64,000 bases of DNA from Eledone cirrhosa (taxonomy: Eukaryota): positions 6,882,001 through 6,946,000 of the forward strand of contig OZ024749.1 in NCBI GenBank assembly GCA_964016885.1. The letters are read 5' to 3'. Under the pieces are notes generated by a model. It had not been told where the DNA came from and did not search any database. It saw nothing but the letters and a program-made list of their open reading frames with translations. The position numbers and the translations under genes were made by a program. Each line of letters starts with the position of its first letter. The first letter of the stretch is position 1. Positions 3,441-63,670 of this stretch are shown in pieces.

Positions 3441-6400
3441 GTATAAATATCTGTGTGAGTGAGGTGTGTGTGTGTGTATACCTGTGTGTGTATGTAAGGG
3501 AGATGGACAAGTGAGGTGTGTGTGTGTGTGTATACCTGTGTGTGTATGTGAGGGAGATAGACAAGTGAGGTGTGTGTGTGTGTATACCTGTGTGTGTGGG
3601 GGAGAGAGATGGACAGGTGAGGTGTGTGTGTGTGTATACCTGTGTGTGTATGTGAGGGAGATGGACAAGTGAGGTGTGTGTGTGTGTGTATACCTGTGTG
3701 TGTATGTGAGGGAGATGGACAAGTGAGGTGTGTGTGTGTATGTATACCTGTGTGTGTATGTGAGGGAGATGGACAAGTGAGGTGTGTGTGTGTATGTATA
3801 CCTGTGTGTGTATGTATACCTGTGTGTGTGTGTGTGGGAGAGAGATGGACAGGTGAGGTGTGTGTGTGTATGTATACCTGTGTGTGTGGGGGAGAGAGAT
3901 AGACAGGTGAGGTGTGTGTGTGTATGTATACCTGTGTGTGTGTGTGGGGGAGAGATGGACAGGTGAGGTGTGTGTGTGTATGTATACCTGTGTGTGTGGG
4001 GGAGAGAGATGGACAGGTGAGGTGTGTGTGTGTATGTATACCTGTGTGTGTGTGTGGGGGAGAGATGGACAGGTGAGGTGTGTGTGTGTATGTATACCTG
4101 TGTGTGTATGTATACCTGTGTGTGTGGGGGAGAGAGATAGACAGGTGAGGTGTGTGTGTGTATGTATACCTGTGTGTGTGGGGGAGAGAGATGGACAGGT
4201 GAGGTGTGTGTGTGTATGTATACCTGTGTGTGTGGGGGAGAGAGATGGACAAGTGAGGTGTGTGTGTGTGTATACCTGTGTGTGTGGGGGAGAGAGATGG
4301 ACAGGTGAGGTGTGTGTGTGTATGTATACCTGTGTGTGTGGGGGAGAGAGATAGACAGGTGAGGTGTGTGTGTGTATGTATACCTGTGTGTGTGGGGGAG
4401 AGAGATAGACAGGTGAGGTGTGTGTGTGTATGTATACCTGTGTGTGTGTGTGGGGGAGAGATGGACAGGTGAGGTGTGTGTGTGTGTGTATACCTGTGTG
4501 TGTGGGGGAGAGAGATGGACAGGTGAGGTGTGTGTGTGTATGTATACCTGTGTGTGTGGGGGAGAGAGATAGACAGGTGAGGTGTGTGTGTGTATGTATA
4601 CCTGTGTGTGTGGGGGAGAGAGATAGACAGGTGAGGTGTGTGTGTGTATGTATACCTGTGTGTGTGGGGGAGAGAGATAGACAGGTGAGGTGTGTGTGTG
4701 TGTGTATACCTGTGTGTGTGGGGGAGAGAGATGGACAGGTGAGGTGTGTGTGTGTATGTATACCTGTGTGTGTGGGGGAGAGAGATAGACAGGTGAGGTG
4801 TGTGTGTGTATGTATACCTGTGTGTGTGGGGGAGAGATGGACAGGTGAGGTGTGTGTGTGTATACCTGTGTGTGTGGGGGAGAGAGATGGACAGGTGAGG
4901 TGTGTGTGTGTATGTATACCTGTGTGTGTATGTGAGGGAGATGGACAGGTGAGGTGTGTGTGTGTGTGTATACCTGTGTGTGTGGGGGAGAGAGATGGAC
5001 AGGTGAGGTGTGTGTGTGTATGTATACCTGTGTGTGTATGTGAGAGAGATGGACAGGTGAGGTGTGTGTGTGTGTGTATACCTGTGTGTGTGGGGGAGAG
5101 AGATGGACAGGTGAGGTGTGTGTGTGTATGTATACCTGTGTGTGTGGGGGAGAGAGATAGACAGGTGAGGTGTGTGTGTGTATGTATACCTGTGTGTGTG
5201 GGGGAGAGAGATGGACAGGTGAGGTGTGTGTGTGTATGTATACCTGTGTGTGTATGTGAGAGAGATGGACAGGTGAGGTGTGTGTGTGTGTGTATACCTG
5301 TGTGTGTGGGGGAGAGAGATGGACAGGTGAGGTGTGTGTGTGTATGTATACCTGTGTGTGTGGGGGAGAGAGATGGACAGGTGAGGTGTGTGTGTGTGTG
5401 TATACCTGTGTGTGTGGGGGAGAGAGATGGACAGGTGAGGTGTGTGTGTGTGTGTATACCTGTGTGTGTGGGGGAGAGAGATAGACAGGTGAGGTGTGTG
5501 TGTATGTATACCTGTGTGTGTGGGGGAGAGAGATGGACAGGTGAGGTGTGTGTGTGTATGTATACCTGTGTGTGTATGTGAGAGAGATGGACAGGTGAGG
5601 TGTGTGTGTGTGTGTATACCTGTGTGTGTGGGGGAGAGAGATGGACAGGTGAGGTGTGTGTGTGTGTGTATACCTGTGTGTGTGGGGGAGAGAGATGGAC
5701 AGGTGAGGTGTGTGTGTGTATGTATACCTGTGTGTGTATGTGAGAGAGATGGACAGGTGAGGTGTGTGTGTGTGTGTATACCTGTGTGTGTGGGGGAGAG
5801 AGATGGACAGGTGAGGTGTGTGTGTGTATGTATACCTGTGTGTGTGGGGGAGAGAGATGGACAGGTGAGGTGTGTGTGTGTATGTATACCTGTGTGTGTG
5901 GGGGAGAGAGATGGACAGGTGAGGTGTGTGTGTGTATGTATACCTGTGTGTGTGGGGGAGAGAGATGGACAGGTGAGGTGTGTGTGTGTATGTATACCTG
6001 TGTGTGTGGGGGGGGGAGAGACAGGTGAGATGTGTGTGTGTATGTATACCTGTGTGTGTGGGGGAGAGAGATAGACAGGTGAGGTGTGTGTGTGTATGTA
6101 TACCTGTGTGTGTGGGGGAGAGAGATGGACAGGTGAGGTGTGTGTGTGTATGTATACCTGTGTGTGTGGGGGAGAGAGATGGACAGGTGAGGTGTGTGTG
6201 TGTGTGTATACCTGTGTGTGTGGGGGAGAGAGATGGACAGGTGAGGTGTGTGTGTGTATACCTGTGTGTGTGGGGGAGAGAGATGGACAGGTGAGGTGTG
6301 TGTGTGTGTGTATACCTGTGTGTGTATGTGAGGGAGATGGACAAGTGAGGTGTGTGTGTGTATGTATACCTGTGTGTGTGGGGGAGAGAGATGGACAGGT

Positions 6401-7640
6401 GAGGTGTGTGTGTGTGTGTATACCTGTGTGTGTATGTGAGAGAGATGGACAAGTGAGGTGTGTGTGTGTGTGTATACCTGTGTGTGTGGGGGAGAGAGAT
6501 GGACAGGTGAGGTGTGTGTGTGTGTATACCTGTGTGTGTGGGGGAGAGAGATGGACAGGTGAGGTGTGTGTATGTATACCTGTGTGTGTGGGGGAGAGAG
6601 ATGGACAGGTGAGGTGTGTGTATGTATACCTGTGTGTGTGGGGGAGAGAGATGGACAGGTGAGGTGTGTGTATGTATACCTGTGTGTGTGGGGGAGAGAG
6701 ATGGACAGGTGAGGTGTGTGTGTATGTATACCTGTGTGTGTGGGGGAGAGAGATGGACAGGTGAGGTGTGTGTGTATGTATACCTGTGTGTGTGGGGGAG
6801 AGAGATGGACAGGTGAGGTGTGTGTATGTATACCTGTGTGTGTGGGGGAGGGAGATGGACAGGTGAGGTGTGTGTGTGTGTGTATACCTGTGTGTGTGGG
6901 GGAGAGAGATGGACAGGTGAGGTGTGTGTGTGTGTGTATACCTGTGTGTGTGGGGGAGGGAGATGGACAGGTGAGGTGTGTGTGTGTGTGTATACCTGTG
7001 TGTGTGGGGGAGAGAGATGGACAGGTGAGGTGTGTGTGTGTGTGTATACCTGTGTGTGTATGTGAGAGAGATGGACAGGTGAGGTGTGTGTGTGTATGTA
7101 TACCTGTGTGTGTGGGGGAGAGAGATGGACAGGTGAGGTGTGTGTGTGTGTGTATACCTGTGTGTGTGGGGGAGGGAGATGGACAGGTGAGGTGTGTGTG
7201 TGTGTGTATACCTGTGTGTGTGGGGGAGAGAGATGGACAGGTGAGGTGTGTGTGTGTGTGTATACCTGTGTGTGTGGGGGAGAGATGGACAGGTGAGGTG
7301 TGTGTGTGTATGTATACCTGTGTGTGTGGGGGGGAGAGAGATGGACAGGTGAGGTGTGTGTGTGTGTGTATACCTGTGTGTGTGGGGGAGAGAGATGGAC
7401 AGGTGAGGTGTGTGTGTGTGTGTATACCTGTGTGTGTGGGGGAGGGAGATGGACAGGTGAGGTGTGTGTGTGTGTGTATACCTGTGTGTGTGGGGGAGAG
7501 AGATGGACAGGTGAGGTGTGTGTGTGTGTGTATACCTGTGTGTGTGGGGGAGGGAGATGGACAGGTGAGGTGTGTGTGTGTATGTATACCTGTGTGTGTG
7601 GGGGAGAGAGATGGACAGGTGAGGTGTGTGTGTGTATGAG
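3440..7640. repeat. ~54-bp compound minisatellite, roughly 78 units
   Basis: Unit ggacaggtgaggtgtgtgtgtgtatgtatacctgtgtgtgtgggggagagagat with variable GT counts. Produces the 18-aa periodicity seen in the spurious ORFs. Confidence 0.95.
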
Positions 7641-8464: not shown

Positions 8465-8915
8465 TTCTAATATGGATATATTAAAAGTAGAATTAAATGT
8501 CATTTACTTGGCCTACATTATTAACTATGTCTGTCTAGGTTGCACTTTATTTCACATTATATATAAAGCTAATATAAAAGTGCTTTTATGTTCTCAGGTG
8601 AGATAAGAATTTTTTAGATTGAAATATTTTCTAATGTAGCACCTTCGATATACAGATTGTGGTAAGAATCCCCCAAAAAATATTATATATATATATCATC
8701 ATCATCATCATCATTGATTAACGTCCATCTTCCATGCTAGTATGGGTTAGACAGGTCCCATTTACAGGCAAGTGTTTCTGGCTGGAATAGCCGTCGAAAC
8801 AGCTTGAGCTCTGCCGTTGGGGGTCATACATTTACCTATTACCCACTCTACTACCCTAAGTATTGAGTACTCTAGTGTGTTATGGTCCATCTGGTTCCTT
8901 ACCACAACTCCTTCG

Positions 8916-8975
<60 letters not shown>

Positions 8976-9669
8976 GATAAGTGGTAACATAACAGTTAAT
9001 TCACCATACCGAGAACAATTGTTTCACCTTAGCAGATCCTCATTCATACTGTTGGGAGTGTACGAGCTGAGGGTCCGCTAAGGTGAAACAATTGTTCTCG
9101 GTATGGTGAACTAACTGTTATGTTACCACTTCTATATATATATATATATAACGAAGGAGTTGTGGTAATGAACCAGATGGACCATAACGCACTAGAGTAC
9201 TCATTACTTAGGGTAGTAGAGTGAGTAATAGGAGAATGTATGACCCCGACGGCAGAACTCATGCCGTTTCGACGGCTATTTCTGGACTAAATTCATTTAG
9301 TCCAGAATTATATATATTGGCATTAGGAAGGGCATCCAGCCATAGAAAACCAGCCAGAAACACTTGCCTCTAAATGGGACCTGTCTAACCCATGCTAGCA
9401 TGGAAGATGGACGTTAATCAATGATGATGATGATGATGATATATATATATAATATTTTTGGGGGGATTCTTACCACAATCTGTATATCGAAGGTGCTACA
9501 TTAGAAAATATTTCAATCTAAAAAATTCTTATCTCACCTGAGAACATAAAAGCACTTTTATATTAGCTTTATATATAATGTGAAATAAAGTGCAACCTAG
9601 ACAGACATAGTTAATAATGCAGGCCAGTAAATGACATTTAATTCTACTTTTAATATATCCATATTAGAA
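8465..9669. repeat. 1.2-kb nested imperfect palindrome
   Basis: Outer arms 8465-8785/9350-9669, middle arms about 8786-8918/9150-9281, inner arms about 8978-9042/9068-9131, separated by (TA)n. Confidence 0.9.
9061..9103 (+). ncRNA. Minimal type-I hammerhead ribozyme, core variant CUGAGGG
   Basis: cgag-CTGAGGG-tccgctaaggt-GAAAC-aatt-GTT-ctcg. Helix I is cgag/ctcg and helix III is the palindrome AACAATTGTT. A9 is changed to G. Confidence 0.55.
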
Positions 9670-9739
9670 ATGTGAATATTACCATGGCATTATTCTCCCT
9701 CTAGCAGATCCTCAGCTCATAACTGTTGGGAGGAGTGTA

Positions 9740-9777
9740 CGAGCTGAGGATCAGCTAAGGTGAAACAATTGTTCTCG
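9740..9777 (+). ncRNA. Minimal type-I hammerhead ribozyme
   Basis: cgag-CTGAGGA(9744-9750)-tcagctaaggt-GAAAC-aatt-GTT-ctcg. Helix II is weak. Same family as 9061. Confidence 0.6.
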
Positions 9778-9873
9778 GCATGGTGAACTAACTGTTGTGT
9801 TACCACTTCTACCTAACTCATCCCATGGACTGAGTGCTCTACCACTACGGATATTACCTTCCAGTGTTCTACA

Positions 9874-9911
<38 letters not shown>

Positions 9912-9940
9912 GTTATGTAATAAATAACATAATGCAATTA

Positions 9941-10000
9941 TTCCATTTACCAGTGGTTTCTTAAAAGCAAAAAATTTTGCTTTCAATCCTCAGAATGAAA
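9941..10000 (-). ncRNA. Type-I hammerhead ribozyme (mirror copy)
   Basis: Reverse complement reads tttcatt-CTGAGGA-ttgaaagc-loop-gcttttaa-GAAAcc-act-gGTA-aatggaa. Confidence 0.85.
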
Positions 10001-10016
10001 AAATCCTGGTCTTTTT

Positions 10017-10076
10017 TTTCATTCTGAGGATTGAAAGCAAAATTTTTGGCTTTTAAGAAACCACTGGTAAATGGAA
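10017..10076 (+). ncRNA. Type-I hammerhead ribozyme, intact
   Basis: Helix I tttcatt/aatggaa; core CTGAGGA 10024-10030; helix II ttgaaagc/gcttttaa; GAAA 10057-10060; helix III acc/ggt; GUA triplet with predicted cleavage after 10069. Confidence 0.88.
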
Positions 10077-10175
10077 TAATTGCATTATGTTGTTTATTAC
10101 ATAACTATTAAGCTCTGTTACCTACATAGAGCACTCTTTTTTCCTGGACTTTTCCGACGGAATTACTTCATTTAT

Positions 10176-10213
<38 letters not shown>

Positions 10214-11753: not shown

Positions 11754-12128
11754 GGAGGCATATGGCTTAGTGGTTAGAGCATTGGCCTTGCAATCCAAAT
11801 GGTGTGAGTTCAATTCTCGGACCGGGTGATGTGTTGTTTCCTTGAGCAAGACACTTTATTTCACATTGCTCCAGTTTACTCAGCTGTAAAAATGAGGACT
11901 GGGGTCCCTATCATTCCACTGGTCGTGGAGGTGCCACAGCAAAAAAGCACCCAGCCCACACTGTAAAGTGGACATGTAGGTGCCACGGAAAAAAAGCACC
12001 CAGCACTCACTGTAAATGAGGTTGGTGTTAGGAAGGGCATCCAGCTGTAGAAATCAACCCAGAATCAGTTCCCGTCCCACCCTTGCAAGCAGGGAAAAGC
12101 GGACATAAAATAATGATGATGATGATGA
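11754..12128 (+). mobile_element. tRNA-derived SINE, family B (CORE-like centre, RTE-derived tail)
   Basis: A box TGGCTTAGTGG, B box GAGTTCAATTC, central ccttgagcaagacactt..ctcagctgtaaaaatgag, and 3' cccgtcccacccttgcaagcagggaaaagcgga(ATG)n shared with the LINE end. Contains an internal dimer of the 48-bp module. Confidence 0.88.
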
Positions 12129-23756: not shown

Positions 23757-23802
<46 letters not shown>

Positions 23803-23859
23803 TAAAAAAATAATGAATAAAACAATGAAACAGTTCCTTATATTAAACAAAAAAAGTTC

Positions 23860-24007
23860 ATTATTTAACGATCGTTTCTGGGATATATATGTGTTAGAAT
23901 TGGCATGTATATTTAACAGATCTATGTACAAAATTATACAAAATTATACAAACTATCAAAATTAAATATACATACCAACTCATATATATGCCGTCTTCAG
24001 AAATGAT
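23860..24007 (-). ncRNA. Hammerhead ribozyme (mirror of 24006-24153)
   Basis: Reverse complement of the + copy, with a slightly weaker helix I. Confidence 0.7.
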
Positions 24008-24153
24008 TATTTCTGAAGACGGCATATATATGAGTTGGTATGTATATTTAATTTTGATAGTTTGTATAATTTTGTATAATTTTGTACATAGATCTGTTAA
24101 ATATACATGCCAATTCTAACACATATATATCCCAGAAACGATCGTTAAATAAT
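24006..24153 (+). ncRNA. Type-I hammerhead ribozyme with extended helix II
   Basis: Helix I attattt/aaataat; CTGAAGA 24013-24019; long helix II including agttggtatgtatatttaa/ttaaatatacatgccaatt; GAAA 24135-24138; helix III palindrome AACGATCGTT; GUU 24144-24146. Confidence 0.78.
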
Positions 24154-24527
24154 GAACTTTTTTTGTTTAATATAAGGAACTGTTTCATTGTTTTATTCAT
24201 TATTTTTTTAATATTTTATCTTGACTCTGTATTCCGTTTATCTTTCACCGAAAGTGATTTTTCATTGCATCTCTTCTTTCCATGATATCCGGATTACATT
24301 GAGTTCTTCATACGGATTGGACACTACCGTAAACTCTTGGTAGATTTATCTACATATATATATATATATATATTTTTAAGTATACCTATATTTATATATG
24401 GTGAGTAATATTAAATATTACCCAGTTACAATATGAAGATAGCTCGAAGCAATATAACAAGTATAATACAGAGCTGAAATACAATGTAAATAATAATCAA
24501 AGAGTGTTTAATCTTTCAAATATTTAA

Positions 24528-24576
24528 TAACTAACGATCGTTTCATCCTAGCACCAGGCAGGTCTCTTGAGAGTTA
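24528..24576 (-). ncRNA. Degenerate hammerhead ribozyme
   Basis: Minus strand reads taact-CTCAAGA(G5 to C)-gacct..aggat-GAAAC-gatc-GTT-agtta. Helix I is taact/agtta. Confidence 0.55.
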
Positions 24577-25231: not shown

Positions 25232-25595
25232 ATGTACATACAGAGAGAGAAAGAGCCATATATTGTAAAAGAAACATGGTATATTGTATATATACCACAT
25301 ACATATTCTATAGAAGAATATGTACACAGGTGGAATCATAAGTGAAACGTTACAGCGCTATTTCATACCTGGAGAGTGTGGGTAAAAATCAATCTATGTA
25401 ATCGATTACATAGATTGATTTCTAGCCACACTCTCCAGGTATGAAATAGTGCTATAAAGTTTCTCTTATGATTCCACCTGTGTACATATTCTTCTATAGA
25501 ATATGTATGTGGTATATATACAATATACCATGTTTCTTTTACAATATATGGCTCTTTCTCTCTCTACATAAGAGTATATCTCTTCACTTGATAAC

Positions 25596-25596
<1 letters not shown>
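25232..25596 (+). mobile_element. Foldback element carrying the 3' half of an HHR, between (TA)n tracts
   Basis: Arms about 25238-25402/25404-25570 centred on atcgat, then a short tail. Same family as 32400-33070. Confidence 0.8.
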
Positions 25597-25630
<34 letters not shown>

Positions 25631-28380: not shown

Positions 28381-29847
28381 TGATGGCTAGTTGCGATATA
28401 AGTGGGCACCTGCCGGATGAATAAGCAGCCTCCGGACCAACAGCAGTAATCTACTAGAGGAGATGGAGCAATGGGTGACACCTGTAACTCCCAAGAAAAC
28501 TCTCACAACCCAGTGATATTGCTATGACAAGGTGAGTAGAAGCAGCCTCTAAAAAAGCCTGGCCTTTGCGGGATTGACAATGTGACTAGTATGAATAAGA
28601 CCATAGAAACTACAAATGCAATATGGTGAGAGGAACAAAAAAGAACCCTACCATATTGTCTTTCACGCAGGTTAACAAGTGACATGTTCAGGCCTTTAGG
28701 TTAAGGGGGCCTGTTTGAAAAATATATTTTCTCCATTTCATTGTAATGAAAGGCAGTCCTGTCTAAAATCTGTTGGACAAGCTAGAGATTCTACTATTTT
28801 ATTTACAAGGTACTAATTATATCTGTTAGGTAGATGGAGTTCTATATTTATATATCTAATGTTTCCTCATTAGACTTCATAAATGGGTTGTGTTTGTCAA
28901 TTTTGGGATAGAGAATGTCCAGAATGTCAACATTGGTCAACATTGGTCAAGTTGGTGTTGACAGCAATGTTGAGGTCAAACCTTTTGATGATCCTTATCT
29001 ATGGTATGGGCATTTATATGACTTGAGATTTCCAGGGTGGTGTCTCTCTACATAGCATAGCTATAGGGGTGCATATGTTTCCTGAGGGTATAAAGGATGA
29101 ATAAATTAAAGGGTTCCACATACATCAATTGAATATTCAGTTCACCGAGGACATAAGACACAATGACACCTCCAAAGTAGTAATGAGATCACACACTGGA
29201 TGTTGCTGAATTCCACAGAGATTAATTTCACCTCCAAGATTTAACAACATCACATGACCTGAAGTAACCAATGGATGCCCTTAAAAGAACCAAAACAAAT
29301 TCCATTCTCCATCTTTTTTCACTTTTCTCCAATGACCGTCATGATTTGGTTATCATCTTAACATTACTGACTGTCAAGTTACATCAAACAATATATATAC
29401 AATATATATACAATGGAGTCACTAGGTGGATTATCAAAAACAATGTTTTGATAATTCACCCAGTGACTCCATTGTTTTCTGTATTTAAAATCAAATTTCA
29501 CAATAGCCAATCAACTATTGATGATAGCGGTTTCAAGACATAATTAATTGCTTATTACGCAATGAAACATATGTTAATGCTTGGAATAAAACCCTATTAT
29601 ATCGATTATCCATGTTAATCATTTTTTTATCTGTTATTACTACTCCAAGTACCACGATCCACAGAACTTTCAGGAATCTACCCTCTGAAAAACCTAAGTA
29701 AACATCTTGTTGAGTCAACTAACACCACATGTTGAAATATTTCTCGGTACAGATTATTCGTAACCTGAGCCTAGGTAATCTTAAATGATATCTCATTAAC
29801 TTTGATGAATATATATATATTTATACAATGGAGGTACATGGCTGATA

Positions 29848-30100
29848 GAGGTACATGGCTTAGTGGTTAGAGCACTGGCCTTGCAATCGAAAGGTTGTGA
29901 GTTCAGTTCTCGGACCAGGTGAATGTGGAATGATAGGGACCCCAGTCCCTATCATCTCATTTCTACAGCTGAGTAAACTGGAGCAATGTGAAATAAAGTG
30001 TCTTGCTCATGGAAACAACACATCACCCGGTCTGAGAATTGAACTGACAACCTTTCGATTGCAAGGCCAATGCTCTAACCACTAAGCCTTGTGCCTCCAT
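29848..30100. mobile_element. Two converging SINE family B heads
   Basis: A + strand head at 29848-29923 is joined directly to a - strand partial copy at 29924-30100. Confidence 0.8.
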
Positions 30101-32075: not shown

Positions 32076-32399
32076 ATATATATATAAATATAAATTCAGC
32101 GATAATTGCATGTTGGCGGGTAGAAAAAGCAAAACGAAATGCAAAAATCAGAAATAATGCTGGCAAGCACTCCATAGTTAAAAAACCAGAGCTAAACAAT
32201 ATGTTATATACATATAGATATACACACACACATATATATACCTATATACATATATATGCATATATATATATATATATACATACATATATAAACAAATAAT
32301 GAATCAAAACATAACAAATATGTTTAGAATTCTGTGTTTCTCAATAGACTTTCTCTAGAGCCTTTATAACGAAATGAAAAGATATATGTTTATATATAT

Positions 32400-33070
32400 A
32401 TAGAGAGAGAAACAGCCATATATGGTACAAGAAACACGGTATATTGTATATATACCAAATACATATTCTATAGAAGAATATGTACACAGATGGGCCAAAG
32501 GCGAAACCTTATAGCGCTATTTCATATCTGGAGAATGTAGCTCAAAATCAATCATCACAAAAAAAAAAAAAAAAAAAAAAAACGCTCCAAACCTCTGACC
32601 TTGTTGAGCTCTGTGGATATAATCACCGTTCCTATTTCTAGCACAGTTATCTTCCACCTTGTGGATATCTATTAGCCATGACTTTAACATCATTTCACCA
32701 AGTTGGGTTTAGCTGTGGATATTCCCAGGTATATTAATTTATTTACCATCTTCATTCCATATTTACCTTAGAATGGTTAGACTAAACCTCTGAAGAGTAC
32801 CTGAGACTCATGTGGTTTAATTATAATCGATAGTTTGTCTTTGATGATCGAATTTATAGATTTTTTACTTTGATGATTGATTACATAGATTGATTTTTTA
32901 CCCACACTCTCCAGGTATGAAATAGCGCTGTAACGTTTCACTTATGATTCCACCTGTGTACATATTCTTCTATAGAATATGTATTTGGTATATATACAAT
33001 ATACCATGTTTCTTTGTACGATATATGGTTCTTTCTCTCTCTGTATATACATATATCTTTTTTCATGTGG
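32400..33070 (+). mobile_element. HHR-bearing foldback element
   Basis: Left inverted arm about 32400-32555, then an A-run spacer, then a right portion holding a complete HHR and the arm 32888-33045. Follows (TA)n. Confidence 0.75.
32784..32938 (+). ncRNA. Type-I hammerhead ribozyme with extended helix II
   Basis: aaacct-CTGAAGA(32790-32796)-gtacctgaga ... tctccaggtat-GAAA(32919-32922)-tagcgct-GTA-acgttt. Helix III is the near-palindrome ATAGCGCT(A/G)T. The sister arm has the fully pairing helix I partner aggttt. Confidence 0.78.
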
Positions 33071-33240
33071 TTACATACACATACACACACATGGCAGTCT
33101 ATTTTTGTTAATATTTAGAATTAATATTAATAACTCCGGAAAACCATATCTGTGGAGTGCTTCTAATCTATTGTAAAACTTTATTCTTTGATTTATTCAA
33201 TGAACCTTGTTTAACCTTTAAATATATATATATATATATA

Positions 33241-44274: not shown

Positions 44275-44597
44275 TACGTCCGCTTTCTCCTTGCTTGCAA
44301 GGGTGGAACGGGAACTGATTCTGGCCTGATTTCTACAGCTGGATGCCCTTCCTAACACCAGCCTCATTTACAGTGAGTGCTGGGTGCTTTTTTGCCATGG
44401 CTCCTCCACGACCACTTTGCAGTGGAATGATAGGGACCCCAGTCCCTATCATCTCATTTCTACAGCTGAGTAAACTGGAGCAATGTGAAATAAAGTGTCT
44501 TGCTCAAGGAAACAACACATCGCCCGGTCTGAGAATTGAACTCACAACCTTTCGATTGCAAGCCCAATGCTCTAACCACTAAGCCATGTGCCTCCAT
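44275..44597 (-). mobile_element. SINE family B, full length
   Basis: Reverse complement of the 37330 copy. Confidence 0.9.
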
Positions 44598-49179: not shown

Positions 49180-49565
49180 TATATATATAGATTGTATATA
49201 AACATTAGAGCATGGAGTGAATTGAAATGTTTATAAAGGTAAGAAATCTCAAGTGTAGGAAGATAGTTGTGAAAACATCTTTAGAAAATCAGGTAAAATA
49301 TTTCTACAGACAGAAAAAGAAGCCAGCAGTGAAGTTGCTACAGAGAATCAGCCACTGGTCTCTTTATGTCTAGAGAAGTATTTTAGCTGACTTTCTAAAG
49401 ATTTATTCATAACTATTTTCCTGCATTTCAAATGTTCTACCTCTCTCTCTCTCTCTCTCTCTATCATCATTTCATTTCATTTCACGTCCGCTTTTTCCCT
49501 GCTTGCAAGGGTGGCACGGGAACTGATTCTGGCTTGATTTCTACAGCTGGATACCCTTCCTAACA

Positions 49566-62469: not shown

Positions 62470-62500
<31 letters not shown>

Positions 62501-62505
<5 letters not shown>

Positions 62506-62860
62506 ATTAAAAAAATAATGAATAAAACAATGAAACAGTTCCTTATATTAAACAAAAAAAGTTCATTATTTAACGATCGTTTCTAGGACATATATGTGTT
62601 AGAATTGGCATAATGCCAATTCTAACACATATATGTCCTAGAAACGATCGTTAAATAATGAACTTTTTTTGTTTAATATAAGGAACTGTTTCATTGTTTT
62701 ATTCATTATTTTTTTAATACTTTATCTTGACTCTGTATTCCGTTTATCTTTCACCGAAAGTGATTTTGAATGCATCTCTTCTTTCCATGATATCCGGATT
62801 ACATTGAGTTCTTCATACGGATTGGACACTACCGTAAACTCTTGGTAGATTTATCTACAT
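62501..62860 (+). mobile_element. Foldback element, second copy of the 23795 family
   Basis: Arms 62501-62611/62613-62723 plus the same tail, with (TA)n on both sides. Carries only the HHR 3' half (GAAACGATCGTT). Confidence 0.85.
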
Positions 62861-63206
62861 ATATATATATATATATATAAATAGAGAGAGAGAGAGATCT
62901 ATAATTTGTTGTGCTCAATTGAACATAGATTTTATTGTTTTAGCCTTGAGTGTATATTTCATTAGTCACACCTTCAACTTGCATTTCATTAGATTATATA
63001 CATACGCACATACACAAAAATATACATATATATTATATATATAATATACATAACATATATATTAAATATATATTATTCATATAACATATATATCAAATAT
63101 ATATAACATATATATTAAATATATATATTATATAGTATATATATATAACATATATATTAAATACATATAACACACATACACATATATACATATATATATA
63201 TATATA

Positions 63207-63437
63207 AATAGGAAAACGTATGACCCCGACGGCAGAGCTCAAGCCGTTTCGACGGCTATTTCTGGACTAAATTAGAATTTTTCATTAAAATTCTAATTTA
63301 ATCCAGAAATAGCCGTCGAAACGGCTTGAGCTCTGCCGTCGGGGTCATACTTTTTCCTATTACCCACTCTACTACCCTAAGTATTGAGTACTCTGGTGCG
63401 TTATGGTACATCTGGTTCCTTACCACAACTCCTTCGT
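63207..63437 (+). mobile_element. Foldback element with HHR 3' half, between (TA)n tracts
   Basis: Arms about 63207-63281/63287-63361 and a ~76-nt tail. GAAAC-GGC-ttgagctct-GCC-GTC forms helix III plus GUC. Same family at 8786-8918 and 9150-9308. Confidence 0.8.
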
Positions 63438-63499
63438 TATATATATATCATCATCGTCCTCCTTATCATCATCATTTTACGTCCGCTTTTCCCTGCTTG

Positions 63500-63534
<35 letters not shown>

Positions 63535-63620
63535 GATCTATGTACAAAATTATACAAAATTATACAAACTATCAAGATTAATTTTGTACATAGATCTGTT
63601 GAATATGCATGCCAATTCTA

Positions 63621-63670
<50 letters not shown>

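Follow-up and report, generated by a model that had tools for sequence, protein, structure and literature searches.

Paired twin priming, probably on a single capped sense RNA, would explain a class of inserts in which two inverted arms of one repeat are followed by a tail on one side only, and the probability of this reading is put at roughly 0.75. Judged from their sequence, these hairpin inserts are the 5′-truncated 3′ ends of a Penelope-like element (PLE) of the Hydra clade, with a reverse transcriptase (RT) and, at the C-terminus, a GIY-YIG endonuclease (EN), placed in (TA)n. The window, that is, the whole stretch of 64,000 nt that was analysed, holds two hairpin copies of one family, here called family A, together with copies of families B, C and D. 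Positions in family A are counted backwards from the last base of the element (window 24356 = 0), where 0 is the outer end and -137 the inner end. The features are the following:

23760..23795: left (TA)n target of copy 1; its terminal AT is common to the target and the inner end of the element
23794..24004, minus strand: inverted arm of copy 1, family A, element -137 to -347; putatively the cDNA from the inner site
24005..24006, plus strand: junction of copy 1, an extra G (24005, in place of the element's C) and then the A of -350 (24006)
24006..24219, plus strand: direct arm of copy 1, family A, element -350 to -137
24006..24153, plus strand: type I hammerhead-shaped motif of copy 1, a descriptor match
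24220..24356, plus strand: tail of copy 1, 137 nt from the inner (-137) to the outer (0) end
24357..24373: right (TA)n target of copy 1
62499..62861, plus strand: copy 2, family A; arms 62499-62611 and 62613-62725, fold at -249, 136-nt tail
9909..10178, plus strand: family B copy; arms 9909-10002 and 10015-10108, 70-nt tail, hammerhead-shaped motif
63207..63438, plus strand: family D copy; arms 63207-63278 and 63290-63361, 78-nt tail
25242..25597, plus strand: older family C hairpin, lacking the 77-nt tail of its family; the arms are 96% complementary
32288..33075: two-armed family C copy; tailed arm 32288-32553 on the minus strand, inner-ended arm 32879-33075 on the plus strand

The arms of copy 1 (23794-24004 and 24009-24219) are 211 nt each, with 0 differences and a 4-nt loop, GATT, and those of copy 2 are 113 nt each, with 0 differences and a 1-nt loop. 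The left arms of both begin at -137, adjoining (TA)n, and target-site duplications are unreadable within (TA)n. The older family C hairpin ends on the right near the inner site and on the left in an internal TA run, and its outer end was lost or never present. A third family A piece (63520-63632) forms a small internal hairpin, from about -309 to -233, without either standard end, its own ends blending into (TA)n at internal TA-rich runs; to the right of copy 1 lies another dispersed repeat (24400-24560).

That family A is a PLE is practically certain, and what the first-pass annotation had drawn as an analogy to the pLTR-plus-tail structure of PLEs proves to be an identity, given by a linked RT-GIY-YIG frame. 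A tblastn search of the window found no PLE ORF inside the 64,000 nt, and long copies of the family have up to 4 kb of body in common. One of them, L032, has the complete unit: it opens with an inverted arm that starts at -137 and a 5′ copy of -194..0; a leader and a frameshifted RT-GIY-YIG frame come next, then 3.3 kb of 3′ sequence rich in microsatellites and, last, the same 3′ end. The frame (4359-6476) reads RT-linker-GIY-YIG over 705 aa, with a frameshifted N-terminal piece besides, and homologues of the protein number 280 at E<=1e-20, the sole animal-species name among the matches listed being that of an Argonauta hians protein. As in Hydra-clade EN+ PLEs, to the extent that the available part of PMC8557442 describes them, the GIY-YIG domain (IVYKCNV...SYIG) is C-terminal and without the CCHH cysteine pair, an RWK-like motif (RRVRWRAY) is present, DKT replaces DKG (in the homologues; it straddles the frameshift in L032), the linker carries CxCX5C (CNCRNKANC), and CxxC (CRLC) and CxH (CNH) are found near the C-terminus. 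The (TA)n target, a trait of the clade, is found in family A copies; Hydra elements have a hammerhead motif near the 3′ end (PMC8557442), and a hammerhead-shaped motif is a candidate counterpart in family A. The repetition of -194..0 upstream of the ORF in L032 constitutes a pseudo-LTR, and in 5 of 80 tail matches the sequence goes on into the 5′ leader. A Pfam search of the L032 frames gave no match, a profile matched a retron RT weakly (E=0.018), and Atlas neighbours have RVT_1 and GIY-YIG domains. Naiad and Chlamys elements were rejected as candidates, since they require an N-terminal GIY-YIG and the endonuclease of L032 is C-terminal; a MITE or DNA transposon was rejected because the ends are unequal, the lengths vary and the family is linked to an RT.

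Family A differs from Hydra elements, which are generally < 3 kb (PMC8557442; Craig et al., 2021): it measures approximately 6.1 kb, and it has an Asn-rich linker and the microsatellite-rich 3′ stretch of 3.3 kb. Hydra-1_Obim of Octopus bimaculoides, of 2,507 bp and also in (TA)n, was set apart by eye, from the protein in the supplement, as a different family (PMC8557442). Within L032, positions 5420-5780 hold an insert of about 80 aa, rich in Asn, Thr and His, in the linker that joins RT to endonuclease; most homologues are without it, and it is reminiscent of N-rich inserts in PLEs of Adineta (PMC3846280, in the part available). A GT...AG stretch in the 5′ leader, just ahead of the N-terminal frame (L032:3915-3998), could be a retained intron. 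As for the other families, the RT and EN of a long family D copy (L269) are 40-46% identical to those of family A, and linked RT or EN pieces were found in 1 of 2 long loci of family D and 3 of 4 of family B, with none clearly linked in 8 loci of family C.

The two 3′ ends of the element are fixed throughout the genome. In its 3.0 Gb a 38-mer of the family A tail has 4,601 matches and a 34-mer of the arm 5,060, with 0 control matches in either case, and the first 30 arm-interior matches listed out of the 5,060 divide evenly: in 15 the end is at 0 (in one of them, -2), in the other 15 it is at -137 (in two of them, -139/-140), and a (TA)n-type repeat follows each. The family represented at window 9910, family B, ends at -70/-71 in 21/30 matches and at 0/-2 in 9/30, and family D (window 63207) at -78/-80 in 17/30 and at 0/-3 in 13/30; the older family C (window 25232) is looser, with 11/30 near -77, 6/30 near 0 and 13/30 elsewhere. 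The same structure appears in raw Illumina RAD reads of two other samples, where the element gives way to (AT)n at -137 in 430 and 455 reads, 62/273 and 55/254 molecules end at -350, and a few strand-switch joints occur at -351/-350 and at unequal positions, each with 2-4 short reads; the -137 end and the -350 strand switches also occur in a contig of a second organism label. The raw-read data support the arm-arm-tail structure at the level of the family. The first-pass annotation had placed the end of the left arm about 137 nt short of the element's 3′ end and had claimed two defined 3′ boundaries, and both statements hold; the random left-arm endpoints and the absence from raw reads that it had named as grounds for doubt are not what was observed. 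Its extension of the plan to other families stands for the copies at 9910 and 63207, whose families use the two ends in 30/30 matches each, and does not stand for the copy at 25232, which is without its family's tail.

Among 66 head-to-head pairs, at loci picked by arm-interior patterns blind to end type, 60 distinct insertions join an outer to an inner end (9 in family A, 10 in family B, and 19 + 24 less 2 shared in family D), 0 are outer plus outer, 0 are inner plus inner and 6 have an irregular end; 31 loci without an adjacent partner, 1 unmapped locus and long-armed pairs lie outside this count. Two older hairpins in the window are without an outer end, 25242-25597 and 8977-9134. The latter belongs to a fifth family, with a CTGAGGA...GAAAC motif and a tail of about 62 nt (window 8977-9134 and 9698-9873), and as both of its arms are inner-ended it is an exception to the pairing rule. 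Random choice between the two sites would make half of the pairs like-ended; none was seen and, together with the agreement of haplotypes between arms, this suggests one complex and probably one RNA. The earlier proposal, in which both strands of the target act as primers and reverse transcription begins at two fixed positions on the RNA, fits both the fixed ends and the pairing.

The lengths of the arms and their 5′ ends were taken from the first 80 tail matches on contig C1. In about 20 of the 80 loci the tail-side piece is exceeded in length by the inverted arm, the excess reaching several kb (L072, L074, L092, L115), and the opposite imbalance is also present (L032, L033, L037); in approximately 20 long copies the 5′ junction lies beyond the retrieved sequence, which bears on the direction of any length bias. 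At 8 of the 80 tail-selected loci (L045, L046, L069, L070, L085, L101, L105, L115) the tail-side piece is shorter than the tail itself, yet it lies against an inverted arm; at L115, 56 nt on the tail side face an inverted arm of 3.1 kb that starts at -137 beside (TA)n. A second cluster of stops lies inside the tail, at -49 to -63, where the tail-side pieces of 8/80 loci come to an end (L051, L069, L070, L085, L086, L101, L105, L115) close to a short repeat, ATCCG...CGGAT.

Two arms within a copy resemble each other far more closely than arms from different copies do, with differences at 5/3,315 sites within copies (22 hairpins used out of 35 with an adjacent arm) versus 2,082/68,598 between arms of different copies. 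Four singleton alleles are common to both arms of a copy, and at subfamily sites the arms agree in all well-aligned pairs, while only 7% of cross pairs are identical. The 30 loci chosen by their identity to copy 1, whose right arm and tail they match at 100%, were kept out of the fold and variant statistics. An origin of both arms from one template had been argued from variants thought to be private to each copy, and this argument fails: AATATTTT is present in 58 of 80 other copies, AATACTTT in 2, CCTAG in 46 and CCCAG in 1, and the so-called private variants are subfamily alleles. The proposal itself keeps support of another kind, namely the low divergence within copies, contrary to the expectation of arms as divergent as other copies, and the shared singletons. 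Concordance of the arms fits one RNA, two RNAs of one locus or gene conversion alike, and cannot separate them.

The fold point, described earlier as freely variable, is not so. A total of 105 5′ ends were mapped, of which 22 were dropped as subfamily divergence points, and among the 83 kept 44 fall at -353..-342, no further than 12 nt from -350, with 21 of these on -350 itself. The bases that precede these ends were counted by hand in the first 100 rows listed. Before the A of -350 stand 27 G, 44 A and 29 T (100 of 874 matches listed), whereas one base further in, as a control, the counts are 11 G, 5 C and 84 T (100 of 176 matches listed), a difference in G versus T with a Fisher p=1.3e-6; the G's that partner arm, local duplication or substitution leave unexplained number 14/27 at -350 versus 5/11 in the control (p=9e-5). 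Among loci picked without bias, G is found at 9/21 ends at -350, 7 of them unambiguous. In family D, the base before the hot-spot A is G in 36, C in 58 and A in 6 (100 of 2,734 matches listed), and T in 99/100 read-through copies; a recurrent junction, in which GGCTATTTC adjoins AGTCC, accounts for 43/100 rows listed, and its C derives from the partner arm. In the genome as a whole this exact junction (e.g., L291, L294, L297) is repeated some 800 times; the tail may be on either arm, and there is little microhomology to account for it. The hot spots are the A of TTCA-TT in family A and the A of TTA-GTC in family D, which we take to resemble an initiator.

In LINE-1, a G added at the 5′ end is a sign of capping (PMC11702581, as far as available), and Penelope has its promoter inside the pseudo-LTR (PMC2377424, likewise). 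It is likely that the hot spot marks a capped RNA start, and the A at 24006 (-350) would then be the capped first base of the RNA, although an RT that added C at any RNA end would give the same G with no cap involved.

The hammerhead-shaped motif of copy 1 comprises stem I, CTGAAGA (24013-24019), a 115-nt stem II and GAAAC (24135-24139), with a predicted cut after 24146 (-210). The type I descriptor matches the test sequences of families A and B and 0/1,000 Markov controls, and it gave no match in C or D; in family C a hammerhead core is visible by eye at 32791, and in family D the first half of the core is degenerate. Rfam gave no hammerhead match at gathering or E-value thresholds, and folding of the whole module did not favour the hammerhead fold. 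The predicted cut was ruled out as the fold point, few 5′ ends being near -210.

On the preferred reading, the RT-endonuclease would cut both strands of the target, and each strand would prime its own cDNA. By the logic of the sequence, each arm of a head-to-head insert would be antisense cDNA grown from a 3′ end of the target. The enzyme, perhaps as a dimer, may bind the end module of the RNA in such a way that one cDNA starts at 0 and the other at -137, and with starts at these two positions the tail would be read once, and all that lies upstream of it two times. Each cDNA would either detach early or extend as far as the capped first base (-350 in family A); there, the extra G would stem from a C that the cap had templated. 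The 3′ ends of the two cDNAs would be end-joined, with small overlaps, trims or fillers, into a head-to-head palindrome. The short hairpins of 560 nt would be double run-off products of an RNA that starts inside the pseudo-LTR. Priming of two paired cDNAs is the firmer part of this scheme and is considered probable; that both cDNAs came from a single RNA molecule is only somewhat favoured. A broader proposal is put forward tentatively, with belief in it a little short of even: the PLE tail and inverted pseudo-LTR would be the obligatory footprint of coordinated twin priming by an asymmetric dimer on one capped sense RNA, with one site per strand and run-off at the cap, and this would be the general PLE route, unlike the target-primed reverse transcription (TPRT) of LINEs, and against self-priming on an antisense template.

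Other explanations of the palindromes have to be weighed against paired priming. A single cDNA might fold back, prime itself and stop at -137, an idea close to that of PMC3846280, the available part of which proposes self-priming on an antisense template for PLEs and reads junction palindromes in this manner. Near-identical arms agree with it, as do approximately 23/80 loci that are near-symmetric, 5 of them away from -350, and symmetric folds off -350 (62612; L048, L050, L054, L098, L114) fit fold-back or a later deletion of the tip equally well. An arm made in this way, however, cannot outreach the strand that it copies, and the many inverted arms that reach further 5′ than the tail-side piece contradict fold-back as a general route, in which form the first-pass annotation had entertained it, unless all the unequal cases are due to later deletions; moreover, the extra G is found on both arms at some junctions (L042, L056) and the stop at -137 is left without a reason. 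Fold-back is judged decidedly improbable. Arms that stem from two separate RNAs, or from one insertion after another, and that gene conversion has since made alike would not need a common template to be of unequal length, and conversion could explain why arm differences (5/3,315) are fewer than the approximately 20 expected from the singleton rate of the tail (6/1,980); yet like-ended pairs should then make up about half of the sample, in place of 0/66, and the agreement of arms at subfamily sites, against 7% identity of cross pairs, speaks in the same direction, which leaves this account improbable.

It has also to be considered that twin priming took place and that the pile-up at -350 has another cause, either a built-in pivot, formed by stem I of the hammerhead or by a short inverted repeat, or short non-autonomous masters whose 5′ end it would represent. 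The position falls within TTCA...TGAA, where stem I of the hammerhead has its base, and in the recurrent family D junction the upstream CTAATTT resembles CTATTTC. Against this, the extra G is foreign to the element and is not confined to one subfamily; the T that precedes the hot spot in family D read-throughs is kept in 2/100 of recurrent junctions and the upstream TAATTC form in 4/100; the pile-up of family D is inside the loop of stem II, not in stem I; and few ends fall at the predicted hammerhead cut. One short master as the source of the recurrent junction was ruled out, as either arm may be tailed (10 and 3 of 30 loci). A cause of this kind for the pile-up is accordingly unlikely, with a small share of belief kept for it. 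Fold-back chimeras do arise in sequencing libraries, and assembly or library chimeras could in principle imitate hairpins, but they would not stop at -137 beside (TA)n at thousands of sites in four families, nor would the -137 end and the -350 switches recur in raw reads of other samples and in the contig of a second organism label; such an origin is hardly credible.

The architecture of the inserts and the existence of two RT start sites are already published, as far as the available parts of the reports go (PMC8557442; PMC3846280; PMC11167929); new here are the long tails, the 6-kb Hydra element and genomic evidence on the insertion mechanism. The canonical PLE unit consists of a pseudo-LTR, an adjacent inverted 5′-truncated copy and a tail of 30-40 bp, and it shares with the present inserts the head-to-head inverted copy and the tail on one side, whereas the tails measure 137, 70, 77 and 78 nt in families A, B, C and D (PMC8557442; PMC3846280). 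The available parts of these two papers do not mention the outer-plus-inner pairing, the pile-up of 5′ ends or the extra G. The Poseidon PLE of Anolis (PAc) has been studied in vitro, and the accessible portion of that work reports that both strands are cut and extended, that a dimer is predicted, that RT starts at two internal RNA sites bounding the tail, on an AT-rich target, and that the hammerhead cut is not needed (PMC11167929; Frangieh et al., 2024). According to the same portion, the PAc sites lie adjacent to each other inside the start of the ORF, without homology between primer and RNA site, and the top and bottom strands behave alike in start site, without strand preference in vitro; the present sites, by contrast, are upstream of the ORF and 70-137 nt apart, all finish in TA/AT matching the target, and are used one per strand per insertion (PMC11167929). 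LINE-1 twin priming likewise uses the second strand to prime a second cDNA, with inverted end-joining, but there the second primer lands variably by the end of the first cDNA and the arms barely overlap, whereas in the present elements the second site is fixed and downstream, so that a stretch is copied twice and a palindrome results (PMC11702581, in the part available).

In a literature search that was light on subscription journals, no paper was found that states the outer-plus-inner rule or a cap G in PLEs, and the accessible portions of 10.64898/2026.07.22.740005, PMC13282606, PMC9977147 and PMC3681739 contain nothing further on mechanism. The twin-priming model extends the in vitro work on the lizard PLE (PMC11167929, as available), and young, abundant families with long tails provide thousands of natural products that bear on how PLEs insert. 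The predictions that they support for the in vitro assay are that each event combines an outer with an inner start, that the template is a capped sense RNA and that two cDNAs are end-joined. In practical terms, short hairpins of this kind should be annotated as PLE ends, and not as MITEs or unknown repeats.

Other repeats of the window are also arranged in inverted form. At 8509-9626 a 277-nt stretch of flanking DNA, which includes a SINE-like repeat, is duplicated in inverted orientation with 99% complementarity; it encloses two tail-to-tail family D copies (8786-8917 and 9150-9293) and a central hairpin, and may be an insertion-linked inverted duplication. The tRNA-like heads of a SINE-type repeat are located at 11763-11820 and 44529-44586 (Rfam tRNA matches), an inverted pair of a similar-looking repeat occupies 29845-30100, and an old palindrome of 72% lies at 49237-49442.
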